Positions 6,495 to 62,164 of a stretch of DNA of 64,000 nucleotides are shown piece after piece. The stretch lies in IMG/VR virus record IMGVR_UViG_3300028859_000013, positions 47,324-111,323 of that record; one strand, 5' to 3'. The notes beneath the pieces are model-generated. The model did not search any database and had not been told where the DNA came from. It saw only the letters and a list, made by a program, of their open reading frames with translations. This DNA comes from a virus. The stretch's first letter is position 1, and every line of letters starts with the position of its first letter. The translations under genes were made by a program, and so were the position numbers.

Positions 6495-6527
6495 AAAAAG
6501 AGAAATGATTAAATCATTTCTCTTTTT
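6495..6527. terminator. bidirectional terminator
   Basis: AAAAAGAGAAATGAT/ATCATTTCTCTTTTT between convergent genes. Confidence 0.75.
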
Positions 6528-6928
6528 TATATGTTAAATTTTTTAGTGCTTTTTGCTAATTCTAATTCAGTTTCTAACTTGCCTTTTTTATGATTATATA
6601 AAGTGAATGATTGAGTTTTATTTATTTTCCGATCTGTCAACTCATACCATTTATTATTCATTTTTACTAATATATCAGATTCATAAGTACTTGATAGTTC
6701 ATCTACTAATTTAATATCTTCACACCTCCCAGTTATACTTTTATTTATAGTTAAATAATTAAAATCATACTTATAAATTTTAAAGCATTGAAATGTTATC
6801 ATATGATTTAATATCATTTCAGAAATTAAATCAAAAAAATCAATATTATATGTTATGCAGTCATTCATTAAATTCATGATTGATATTTCTGTGTTGCGTA
6901 AATCTTCAAAGGTTTTTATATATTTCAT
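6527..6928 (-). CDS. CTS-like/KFNI family protein
   Basis: MKYIKTFED...KKFNI. Confidence 0.8.
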   Translation of the reverse strand: MKYIKTFEDLRNTEISIMNLMNDCITYNIDFFDLISEMILNHMITFQCFKIYKYDFNYLTINKSITGRCEDIKLVDELSSTYESDILVKMNNKWYELTDRKINKTQSFTLYNHKKGKLETELELAKSTKKFNI

Positions 6929-6973
6929 GATATTATATATTAAATTAAATATTTATTTTTTATATATAATGCT

Positions 6974-7333
6974 ATGAAGCATTTAAAAATATATGAAGCA
7001 TTTAAAGAATCTGATGTCAAAATAGGAAATTATGTAATATTAAACGTTAAATTTAAAGATTTTGGATATTCTTTATCTGATAATCAAAAAAATACTCTTG
7101 TCGAATATTTAAATAATACAATATGTGAAATTGTTAATATAACTACTAGTTATTCTGGTATCCAAGAGATAGATGTTAAATATAATAATATACCGTTTAC
7201 TCTTAATGATTGGTTCGGTGTAGGAAGAACTATTACATTAGATATTACAGATATTTTTGATATGTCAGATTCAAAAAAAGAACTAATTGATAGACATAAT
7301 TTAAGGCAAGTAGTAAATAAATTTAATATATGA
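6974..7333 (+). CDS. CTS-like/KFNI family protein
   Basis: MKHLKIYEAF...KIGNYV...NKFNI. Confidence 0.8.
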   Translation: MKHLKIYEAFKESDVKIGNYVILNVKFKDFGYSLSDNQKNTLVEYLNNTICEIVNITTSYSGIQEIDVKYNNIPFTLNDWFGVGRTITLDITDIFDMSDSKKELIDRHNLRQVVNKFNI

Positions 7334-7635
7334 AGTATTTAAAAATATATGAAAAATATAATAATTTGCCTATTCTTGGTGATTATGTCGTAGTTTATTG
7401 TGAATCAATGAATGAAAAATTTAACGATTTTATAAATAATAATATTGGTAAGTTAAATAATTACGGTAGAATAACAGATCTTGCTTGGGTTGAGTATTTT
7501 AATATTCCAGAAGAATTAAAAAAACATTTTGATGATGATAAATATGCTATACTTAATACAAATACTATTAAATATTTTTCTAGTGACAAAAAAAATGTAG
7601 AAGCGTATTTGAAAGCTCAAAAATTTAATATATAA
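7330..7635 (+). CDS. CTS-like/KFNI family protein
   Basis: MKYLKIYE...LGDYV...QKFNI. Confidence 0.8.
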   Translation: MKYLKIYEKYNNLPILGDYVVVYCESMNEKFNDFINNNIGKLNNYGRITDLAWVEYFNIPEELKKHFDDDKYAILNTNTIKYFSSDKKNVEAYLKAQKFNI

Positions 7636-7638
7636 AAT

Positions 7639-8154
7639 ATGAAATTGAAAAGATTTAATGAAAGTGTTCATGAAGATTATGTCGAAATACTTCAAGATAA
7701 AATTAAAAATGATAAAAAAATTATTAATAGATTTGAATTTTATTTTGATAACATGAGTAATACATTTGAATGGGATTCTGATAATATTACAATATTTGCA
7801 ACTCCTTATTGGGAAGAAAATTTAAATTTACCTATTGATATTCTTATTGATGATACCGATCGTAATATTGTTTTTGAATTAAAAGAATTAACTTCACAAA
7901 AAGACGTTGATAATACTATAAATTATTATTATGAAATAATAGATTCATTAACATTAAAATTAAATAAAATATCAGAATTGAATAGTGTTATTCCTATTAT
8001 ATTAAATAAATTGAGTATTATAAAATTTGATAATATTATTATAAAATCTATTGACGATATAAAAAAATATGATATTGATGAATTAGTAAAATTATATAAT
8101 TACTTATATAAACAATATCCTGAAATATTTTTAGCTAAAAATTTTAATATATAA
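7639..8154 (+). CDS. CTS-like/KFNI family protein
   Basis: MKLKRFNE...KNFNI. Confidence 0.8.
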   Translation: MKLKRFNESVHEDYVEILQDKIKNDKKIINRFEFYFDNMSNTFEWDSDNITIFATPYWEENLNLPIDILIDDTDRNIVFELKELTSQKDVDNTINYYYEIIDSLTLKLNKISELNSVIPIILNKLSIIKFDNIIIKSIDDIKKYDIDELVKLYNYLYKQYPEIFLAKNFNI

Positions 8155-60459: not shown

Positions 60460-60597
60460 AATATATTTTTTAATAAAAACAGAGAACTTAAATTTAGTTC
60501 TCTGTTTTTATTTTATATACAATTTTTAATTGACCAGAATCATAAATTATATTATGACAGTTATTTTTTTATATATAATTAAAATTACAAATAAAAT

Positions 60598-61491
60598 ATG
60601 GTATTAGAATCAAAAGGTACTCCAGATATATTACTAAATATTATTACTAAATATGATAGTGAAATCATATATAGTTCTAAAAATTTAACAACATTATTAA
60701 TAGATATAAACGAAGTTGATTTAGTCGCTAGTTTGACTATTAATTTTAAAAAAAATGATAGTAAGAATAATTTTTCAGGAGATTTAAATTTTGATGATTG
60801 TATAAATTCAAATTTTAAAAATTGTATAATAAATTTAAATGTATCATATTTTAATAAATCTTTAATAATTAAATCTTTGATGCATGAGCTAACTCATTTA
60901 TATGAATTGTATAAAATAAAAGATATTTATACTAAGTCAAAATGGAATAGAATGAAAGTATTATATGACACAAGAAAACAAATTAACAATAATAGTTTAT
61001 TTTATTTTATAGATATTTTTTATTTATCTCTACCATTTGAAGTTAATGCAAGAGTTTCCAGTGTTTATACTTATTTATCTGATAAAAAAATTAAAGATAT
61101 AGATATTCTAAAAAAATTTTTAGTAGAGACAATTGAGTGGCAGAATATGTTAAATTTAAAAAATTTTGAATATAAACAATTATATACTGACTTAATAAAC
61201 TCATATATAAACGATAAAGTTTTTCTTTATGAAATATTTAATTTATTTAATTCTAAAATGAAAATAAAAACAAAAATAAATTCTGATACAGATTTATATA
61301 ATTATTTAAAAAATTCTAGTAGATATTTTAAGTCAGTATCATCAAATTTTATAAAAAAACTATTAAAAGTATTAAATAGAGTATCTGACGAATCATTAAA
61401 AGAGGGATATTGGACGTCTTCAACAAAAATAGTAATTTACAAACAATATATAAAAGAAAATAAAGATATTGATTATCTTAAATTTTTATAA
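60598..61491 (+). CDS. HExxH metallopeptidase-like protein
   Basis: HELTH..YLSLPFEVNAR. Confidence 0.65.
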   Translation: MVLESKGTPDILLNIITKYDSEIIYSSKNLTTLLIDINEVDLVASLTINFKKNDSKNNFSGDLNFDDCINSNFKNCIINLNVSYFNKSLIIKSLMHELTHLYELYKIKDIYTKSKWNRMKVLYDTRKQINNNSLFYFIDIFYLSLPFEVNARVSSVYTYLSDKKIKDIDILKKFLVETIEWQNMLNLKNFEYKQLYTDLINSYINDKVFLYEIFNLFNSKMKIKTKINSDTDLYNYLKNSSRYFKSVSSNFIKKLLKVLNRVSDESLKEGYWTSSTKIVIYKQYIKENKDIDYLKFL

Positions 61492-61508
61492 AAAATAAAT
61501 AAATAAAT

Positions 61509-61805
61509 ATGTCAATAGATAGAAGAATTGTATCAATATTATATTACAATAATATAACTGATATTAATAATGTGGAAGAATTTATAGGAGAAAAAAATGG
61601 TTATTATGATATTAAAATAAATGGAAAAATTAAATCATTAAAAATTCCAGATAATGAATATACCAAGCGTACTAAAATAACTACAAAAGTAACTACAAAC
61701 ACAACTACAAACACAACTACAAAAGCAATCACAAAAGTAACTACAAAAAAATTGGAAAATAAAAATAAAAAATCAAATGATGATGATTTTATTACGTCTA
61801 TTTAA
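61509..61805 (+). CDS. hypothetical protein with Thr-rich repeats
   Basis: TTKV/TTNT repeats. Confidence 0.65.
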   Translation: MSIDRRIVSILYYNNITDINNVEEFIGEKNGYYDIKINGKIKSLKIPDNEYTKRTKITTKVTTNTTTNTTTKAITKVTTKKLENKNKKSNDDDFITSI

Positions 61806-61825
61806 TTTAAAAATATAAATATATT

Positions 61826-62164
61826 ATGAAAATTGCAAAATTTAATGAAACTATTGGATATCAAGATAGAAGATATAAAATTGATTTAGAATTATTAAGT
61901 AAGCTAGTATTAGATAAATCTATAAGAAAAGAACTAAAATTATTTAAATCTCATATAGATAGTTATTTAGAATCAGTATATGATATGATAGAATATGGAA
62001 GAGGTGATGTTTTTTTATATTCTATAACAAATGAGTTCAAAATAGCATACATTAAAAGTGCTAAATTTAGTAATACATTACAAACGGTTCCAGTAGAAAC
62101 ATTAATCGGTTTCGATTTAGAAGAATATAAAGTATTCAAAGATTCTGAAAAATATAATTTATAA
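61826..62164 (+). CDS. CTS-like/KYNL family protein
   Basis: MKIAKFNE...EKYNL. Confidence 0.78.
   Translation: MKIAKFNETIGYQDRRYKIDLELLSKLVLDKSIRKELKLFKSHIDSYLESVYDMIEYGRGDVFLYSITNEFKIAYIKSAKFSNTLQTVPVETLIGFDLEEYKVFKDSEKYNL

Follow-up and report, generated by a model that had tools for sequence, protein, structure and literature searches.

Why should proteins with nothing else in common begin with the same few residues? The question is raised by a 64,000-nucleotide stretch of viral DNA, here called the window, which comprises positions 47,324 to 111,323 of the IMG/VR record IMGVR_UViG_3300028859_000013 and is the last 64 kb of that 111-kb contig. The contig has a GC content of 23% and an estimated completeness of 16%, so that the whole genome would measure about 700 kb. 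Judged by its genes, the source is an uncultured T4-type phage, since the window codes for a T4-type structural set with a sheath (745-4410), a tail tube, and a head-closure protein. A first-pass annotation of the window had listed 31 translation starts with a leader resembling the capsid-targeting sequence (CTS) of T4 internal proteins. As described below, these leaders fall into two classes, are in many cases paired with a C-terminal tag, and interchange on the same cargo. On balance, we favour the view that they are T4-type capsid-targeting propeptides, hugely expanded and diversified, with a lineage-specific addition at the C-terminus.

The leaders were counted in simple open reading frame (ORF) calls made for the present analysis, 163 over the whole contig. 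Class 1 in its loose form (M-K-x-[ILV]-K-x-[FY]-E) opens 25 of these ORFs, where about 1 is expected, and in its strict form (MK.[ILV]K.[FY]E) 19 of them, with an expectation of about 0.01. Class 2, defined as [FYW]xx[FY][ILV]xE within the first 20 residues, is present in 10 ORFs (expected 0.6). About one gene in five on the contig is tagged (~35/163 ORFs). The enrichment over shuffled N-termini, which the first-pass annotation had proposed as a check, is pronounced: 1000 shuffles of residues 2-20 yield means of 1.1 (loose class 1), 0.01 (strict), and 0.64 (class 2), with maxima of 6, 1, and 4, respectively. Class 1 is matched at 4 of 489 internal Met positions, and among 643 ATG-started open stretches outside called genes class 1 is found in none and class 2 in 5. 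The reversed DNA pattern has 0 matches in every genome searched. One candidate tagged gene, 50317-50601 (MDDIKAFKE), was judged to fit the loose pattern by chance and left out.

Of the 31 starts listed earlier, 25 stand as real ORF starts with a shared N-terminal motif. Three others (19848, 29320, and 48139) are weak matches without the Glu, and three are not genes: 22015 meets a stop at codon 4, 11754 opens a stub of 13 codons, and 47006 opens an ORF of 30 codons in another frame than the 160-aa ORF below. In this last region (46972-47006, minus strand), a good leader, MKKLKDFIGFVNE, precedes the short ORF, and the 160-aa ORF starts at 46972; a frameshift, an error in the assembly, or decay of the gene could account for this. 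The same list had treated the leader as one motif, thereby pooling two distinct classes of which only class 2 fits the T4 cut-site rule, and had not linked it to any C-terminal partner. Its statement that replication enzymes lack the motif holds for the exonuclease, the methyltransferase, and the homing endonucleases, but not for the NUDIX hydrolase at 16957, which has a class-2 leader.

Class 1 was followed further with a family profile of one SH3-like subfamily, which retrieves 2613 representatives at E ≤ 1e-3 among 1.8 billion proteins. Nearly all of its best 150 matches begin at residue 1, and the two ends are the most conserved parts of the protein. Among 151 family representatives, [ILV] at position 4 together with [FY] at position 7 occurs in 144. 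Glu stands at P1 in 138 of the 151; most have T or K at P3, with F or Y at P2. The conservation breaks off exactly at Glu8.

Leader swapping on orthologous cargo is considered here the strongest new result. In the Tpt1-like family, E-G-L-I is invariant in 17/17 aligned members, and what precedes it in E-GLI is MKYLKKFE in the window (class 1), MKIKKYDYFINE or MKLLNYLDFVKE (class 2), or a longer two-site leader such as MKTYSKFIE...EIVNE, which recalls T4 IpI. The VWA-like cargo starts with MKKIKTFE in the window and with the class-2 leader MKIINDFKKFLNE in an ortholog. Likewise, the HExxH cargo has MKTYIQFINE, MKTFKEFVNE, or MGFISFKNWLSE ahead of a conserved start A[NT]IGDFF, and its distant homologs are without any leader. 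On orthologous cargo, Glu8 of class 1 is thus aligned with the P1 Glu of class 2.

The second element lies at the opposite end of the protein. The ending [KN][FY]N[IL]-stop, here called the C-tag, is found in 13/25 class-1 ORFs versus 4/138 others (Fisher p = 1.6e-9). Over 117 unrelated cluster representatives its consensus is [ILYF]-E-[LIM]-x-x-[DNS]-[ATS]-[NK]-K-[FY]-N-[IL], in which a hydrophobic residue at -12 and a Glu at -11 form a conserved pair. Some proteins with T4-like MKT[FY]IQF[NY]E leaders or with class-2 leaders bear the C-tag as well. Because leaders swap on the same cargo and the C-tag pairs with several leader forms, all leader forms and the C-tag belong to one system. Synonymous codon variation at the tag positions equals or exceeds the background (K2 is AAA in 93% vs 90%, E8 is GAA in 89% vs 88%, and the C-tag Asn at position -2 is AAC in 40% vs 11%), so selection acts on the protein level in both tags. 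In the wider family, KYNL is the commonest C-tag and the stop is TGA in 52%, and conservation of KFNI-stop as a promoter spelling was ruled out as a general cause by the dominance of these forms. Two other explanations of the C-tag were set aside: its likeness to the C-terminal end of the scaffold (DKLNS) extends over about 3 residues, and relatives with the same scaffold end have few C-tags; packing of the two tags as one structural unit is not what AlphaFold2 gives, since it leaves the N-terminal tag free.

The likeness to T4 proposed in the first-pass annotation is borne out. T4 IpII and IpIII start MKTYQEFIAE-A and IpI starts MKTFKEF, and the window protein at 10318 starts MKTYIQFINE-A; it is identical to T4 IpIII at 9 of the first 12 residues and has Y4 and F7. 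In T4, targeting depends on CTS residues 4 and 7 (Y4, F7) and processing on residues 8 and 10 (PMC9026906). The class-2 leaders of the window end FINE, FLNE, YITE, FLIE, FLVE, FITE, and FICE and follow the T4 rule of [ILV] at P3 and Glu at P1; their pattern fits both YQEFIAE-A of T4 IpII/IpIII and the T4 gp23 maturation site FGSFLTE-A. As in T4, the leaders are short, start at residue 1, and stand on unrelated proteins. The residue types of the T4 targeting positions 4 and 7, hydrophobic or aromatic, are kept also in class 1.

Since the contig stops 3' of its portal gene, the protease and capsid genes were read from relatives. In ten of these (portal identity 48-97%, with L032 at 97%), the gene directly after the portal gene codes for a fusion protein of 748-814 aa, and a gp23-type capsid protein comes next. 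The fusion combines an N-terminal gp21-like protease with a scaffold. The scaffold part holds 10-14 copies of Y-S-E-Y-[IL]-A-E (Y..Y[ILV].E) in a strict 14-residue period, which is the class-2 core; the background rate of this core is 8/28,433 positions. From this match we infer that the repeat may be at once the self-association unit and the cut site of the scaffold, and that the class-2 leader may be one copied unit.

The cargo was surveyed in 28 related IMG/VR loci and the contig itself, where 315 proteins are tagged, 189 of them at both ends. By BLAST, their middles group into 145 clusters, of which 101 are singletons; 79 proteins are SH3-like, 21 ankyrin, and 7 leucine-rich repeat (LRR). 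Together with the interchange of leader types on orthologous cargo, this diversity upholds the earlier notion of a portable tag. Pfam confirms Ank, LRR, VWA-like DUF2201, and the ExoX C-terminal motif in the tagged set, and one Pfam sigma-70 protein bears a leader of class-2 form without a C-tag. Apart from the VWA-like match, Pfam and PHROGs give almost nothing on ten small tagged proteins. AlphaFold modelling of 8158-8499 from a 143-sequence alignment predicts a confident SH3/KOW-like barrel with a predicted local distance difference test score (pLDDT) of 83, its residues 1-11 being below 50; in the model of 8503-9198, residues 1-10 are at pLDDT 34. In both confident models these low-scoring leader residues are the most conserved columns, and the leader is predicted to behave as a free, disordered peptide outside the fold. 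The best Foldseek match of 8503-9198 is a Tpt1/KptA-like fold (E = 1e-6), followed by DarT1, and its Pfam match to PTS_2-RNA is weak. In the PDB and BFVD, the SH3-like model has only weak matches, of KOW/Tudor/SH3 type, an ESM Atlas search returns unnamed viral clusters only, and the SH3-like family has no match among 50,697 GenBank phage records. With its ankyrin, LRR, SH3-like, VWA-like, and HExxH proteins and its Tpt1/KptA-like fold, the cargo looks effector-like.

Some further observations concern the same protein families. P0008, a metagenomic protein of 243 aa, is a tandem fusion of two SH3-like modules in which the first C-tag and the second leader are kept as an internal linker, which hints that these modules can also exist as polyproteins. 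The HExxH and VWA-like (DUF2201) proteins are coded side by side at 10318-11450 (+), each with its own leader. A 528-aa protein coded 2817-4403 nt upstream of the window start, on the minus strand, has a BLAST match to the VWA-like protein, and its start fits neither leader pattern.

The system is unevenly distributed among related phages. The class-1 DNA pattern has 18 matches in the 111-kb contig itself (G000), 59 in 330 kb of G004, 48 in 214 kb of G005, 7 in 159 kb of G003, 18 in 508 kb of G001 (97% complete, portal 51% identical), and 3 in 271 kb of G002. In G004, 117/564 ORFs are tagged, with arrays of up to 19 per 20 kb. Close relatives are rich in C-tags by ORF count, with 103 in G004 alone. 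When the DNA pattern of the C-tag was counted in five records, it was enriched in the contig itself only (20 versus 5 in the control), with no enrichment in G001, G002, G003, and LR756501. A tagged gene follows the portal module here and in L032 and is absent from that place in L043, L049, L054, and L068; tagged genes are optional between core genes.

As regards expression, the most enriched upstream word is [AT]ATATATA, which lies 5' of the sheath, tube, portal, protease, and capsid genes and also heads tagged arrays and single tagged cassettes. This shared motif and the gp55-like sigma factor hint at late expression of the tagged arrays. In L032, positions 14290-14372 contain a GC-rich hairpin and then a late-type TATATA motif before the single tagged gene next to the portal module; this gene looks like a self-contained terminator-promoter-gene cassette.

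Taken as capsid-targeting propeptides, the leaders would act in the following way. Many accessory proteins, mostly small, would be made late in infection, their first 8-13 residues forming a free, unstructured peptide. A class-2 leader would copy one unit of the 14-residue repeat of the protease-scaffold protein and thereby join the scaffold core of the prohead, and class 1 would be a shortened variant in which targeting positions 4 and 7 are still hydrophobic or aromatic. The gp21-type protease would cut after the final Glu, and the cargo would stay in the head and exit with the DNA. In the lineage of the window a second tag, hydrophobic-E-[LIM]-x5-K-[FY]-N-[IL]-COOH, would have been added at the C-terminus, where, as in T4 Alt, it may provide another element for docking or a further propeptide. 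Scaffold binding, cleavage, packaging, and injection of the tagged proteins are all proposed here from sequence. For class 2 taken alone, a role as capsid-targeting propeptide is probable; for class 1 the scales are level. The boldest form of the proposal is that a huge phage loads more than 100 diverse, mostly small proteins into its capsid by a removable two-ended address (a CTS-type leader and K-[FY]-N-[IL]), each virion delivering an effector set as varied as that of a bacterial secretion system; we put it forward tentatively, as a possibility that we would not yet call likely.

Several findings weigh against a capsid-targeting role. Class 1 fails the T4 processing rule, its P3 being usually K or T and not I, L, or V, and it is unlike the scaffold repeat. 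LR756501, a 735-kb uncultured phage that is the nearest GenBank record (portal identity 64%), has 0 class-1 leaders. The C-tag is enriched in the closest lineage only, so that head assembly in the clade can do without it. The motif [AT]ATATATA stands also 5' of homing endonucleases, so it is not a virion-specific mark. The contig itself ends before the protease gene, which is why a PF03420 search of it gave no match. Finally, the 117/564 tagged ORFs of G004 would imply about 250 different packaged proteins per genome, far above any known phage.

This last figure, which is high for one capsid, also speaks for the alternative that survives best, namely that something else than the prohead core reads the tags as address labels: a tail or surface structure on which binding modules are displayed, a phage compartment inside the cell, or a host or phage protease or chaperone to which the variable domain brings targets. 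The conserved ends are disordered, as in short linear motifs, binding modules (ankyrin, LRR, and SH3-like) abound in the cargo, and class 1 and the C-tag fit neither the T4 cut-site rule nor the scaffold repeat. Moreover, the last residues of the C-tag, hydrophobic-x-hydrophobic-COOH, have the general form of PDZ-type domain ligands. We nevertheless hold this alternative to be rather unlikely, given that, on one and the same cargo, class 1 takes the place of the T4-type class-2 leader with its Glu in the same alignment column, that the C-tag pairs with T4-like MKT[FY]IQF and class-2 leaders as well, and that no candidate reader protein was found.

A lower probability still attaches to the idea that the shared ends have no targeting role and were inherited or spread by recombination, in one large multigene family or a set of cassettes whose conserved 5' and 3' ends would help genes to shuffle, couple their translation, or embed promoters. 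The close tandem spacing of the genes, with stop and start codons overlapping as ATGA, single tagged genes placed as optional cassettes between core genes, the tandem fusion P0008, and the promoter-like motif that lies within KFNI-stop when spelled AAATTTAATATATAA would all suit it. However, synonymous sites in both tags vary at least as much as the background, and the prevalence of KYNL and of the TGA stop in the wider family means that the promoter-like sequence is not conserved. In addition, the middles include clearly unrelated folds (ankyrin, LRR, VWA, and Tpt1-like), and leaders of differing length and type precede the same mature start. That the motif simply follows from AT-rich coding and Lys-rich translation starts (GC 23%; Lys at position 2 in 59/163 contig ORFs) can practically be discounted, since the shuffles, the internal Met positions, the off-gene ATG stretches, and the reversed pattern yield few matches, about 0-1 against 19-25 observed, and since the C-tag pairing and the lack of class-1 leaders in the related LR756501 likewise oppose it.

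Capsid targeting, the reading preferred here, invites comparison with systems already known. Reviews have suggested the CTS as a route by which T4-like phages load varied proteins. As in the T4 internal proteins, a leader of 8-19 residues starts at residue 1 of unrelated small proteins, has hydrophobic or aromatic positions 4 and 7, and ends with Glu; class 2 agrees with the leader and the cut site of T4, and the clade has T4-type portal, capsid, and protease genes. T4, however, has three such proteins and Alt, whereas here there are ~35/163 tagged ORFs, and 117/564 in a relative, known from their sequences alone. Here, too, class 1 has 8 residues and lacks [ILV] at P3, a C-terminal tag is paired with the leader, and the cargo includes repeat proteins and enzymes. 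T4 Alt is a head-packaged ADP-ribosyltransferase that loses peptides from both ends, its N- and C-terminal propeptides being removed by gp21 (PMC9026906). The two-ended arrangement is similar, and the protein at 8503-9198 has a predicted Tpt1/KptA-like fold, of ADP-ribosyltransferase type. There is no sequence similarity to Alt, and the C-tag is a fixed 12-residue motif common to more than 100 proteins; that it is cleaved is a guess.

In phiKZ and SPN3US, propeptides of ejection proteins are cut at [A/S/G]-x-E by a gp21-related protease (PMC5694885). There also, a prohead protease related to that of T4 cuts many proteins of the head interior after Glu, and conserved N-termini stand on diverged paralogs. 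Most of their propeptides exceed 100 residues, and processing is limited to about 8-19 proteins, whereas the leaders described here have 8-13 residues, are far more numerous, and stand on unrelated cargo. The effector sets of bacterial secretion systems likewise have a short terminal signal in common across many and varied proteins, rich in ankyrin and leucine-rich repeats. This is an analogy only, the machine here being a phage capsid and tail, and no homology is implied. A full-text literature search found no paper describing the motif strings or a CTS in huge phages. The CTS concept is known; what is new is the scale, the second leader class, the paired C-tag, the leader swapping, and the match to the scaffold repeat.

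Table 1. Tagged genes of the window, with the portal and late sigma factor genes (positions in the window)
Position	Strand	Leader	C-tag	Protein	Remarks
6527..6928	-	MKYIKTFE, class 1	KFNI	133 aa	TAATATATA 14 nt upstream
6974..7333	+	MKHLKIYE, class 1	KFNI	SH3-like	opens tandem array
7330..7635	+	MKYLKIYE, class 1	KFNI	SH3-like	ATGA overlap with preceding gene
7639..8154	+	MKLKRFNE, variant	NFNI	171 aa
8158..8499	+	MKYLKKFE, class 1	KFNL	SH3/KOW-like family member (model)
8503..9198	+	MKYLKKFE, class 1		Tpt1/KptA-like (ADP-ribosyltransferase-type) predicted fold	leader abuts mature start GLI
10318..11061	+	MKTYIQFINE-A, class 2		HExxH cargo	compared with T4
11073..11450	+	MKKIKTFE, class 1		VWA-like domain (DUF2201)
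11492..11743	+	MKYLKKYE, class 1	KFNI	short SH3-like member
16737..16943	+	MSRINTYRQFLNE, class 2		68 aa
16957..17430	+	MINFDEYITE, class 2		NUDIX hydrolase
21111..22001	+	MNIILYNNFLIE, class 2		296 aa
24866..25612	+	MIFKRYNDFLVE, class 2		248 aa
26014..26421	+	MKVDKFNE, variant		135 aa
33140..33364	+	MKYIKTFE, class 1		74 aa
33420..33863	+	MITKFKIFE, variant	KFNI	147 aa
34527..34844	+	class 2, end FDDFITE		105 aa	cargo conserved in LR756501
34841..35152	+	class 2, end FDAFLNE		103 aa
36159..36689	+	MKKLKTFE, class 1		acidic, 176 aa	leader at internal ATG of ORF
39234..39911	-	MSYIKQFE, class-1-like		225 aa
47033..47338	-	MKNFKEFLE (cf. T4 IpI MKTFKEF)		101 aa	TTTATATATA 14 nt upstream
49371..50270	+	class 2, end WDNFICE		299 aa	paralog of 60598-61491
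53553..53765	-	MKFIKTYE, class 1		70 aa
53913..54125	+	MNKLKKFE, class 1		70 aa
56675..57049	+			gp55-like late sigma factor	phrog_234, E = 1.6e-4
58702..60459	+			T4-type portal (gp20)	anchors head gene module; contig stops before protease and capsid genes
61826..62164	+	MKIAKFNE, variant	KYNL		optional cassette just 3' of portal module

Other features of the contig lie among or beside the tagged genes. A full-length IS605-type OrfB/TnpB gene with Cas12f1-like TNB, OrfB_IS605, and HTH domains is located amid them at 22360-23595 (+). Two large DUF7487/HNH homing endonucleases are coded at 4524-6278 (+), beside the sheath gene, and at 62159-63796 (-), beside the portal module, the latter interrupting, at the end of the contig, the run of genes that leads from portal to protease; two further paralogs lie upstream of the window. 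Five tRNA genes (Pro-TGG, Gly-GCC, Val-TAC, Arg-TCT, and Met-CAT) occupy 27189-29164 and 37123-37196. In the middle of the tagged array lie two adjacent ORFs of 197 and 105 aa (9369-10269, minus strand) that overlap by 11 nt. With 35% identity over 63 aa (E = 3.5e-10), they are similar to the C-terminal region of the LR756501 capsid protein, which is of gp23 type; they may represent a piece of a capsid-protein gene, a paralog that has diverged, or a gene broken by a frameshift. DNA of the window is found also in peat and freshwater metagenomes; none of the sequencing runs listed as containing it is of RNA. In a few genes (25677 and 23818(-) in the window, and contig genes upstream of it), TAnnTTTG, which we take to be the Bacteroidota -7 promoter element, occurs about 22-32 nt 5' of the ATG. 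It suggests a host in Bacteroidota, and it also suggests early transcription of these genes by the host polymerase.

If the leaders are capsid-targeting propeptides, sequence alone would suffice to list the proteins that uncultured huge phages inject, and the variety of this cargo would be tens of times that of any studied phage. The tags would offer natural short signals for loading foreign proteins into large capsids, and the swapping of leaders on the same cargo would provide a simple test set. The match between leader and scaffold repeat suggests a mechanism for the CTS itself, which may mimic one scaffold unit, an idea testable in T4. Huge phages would then take over cells with ready-made proteins as well as with genes.

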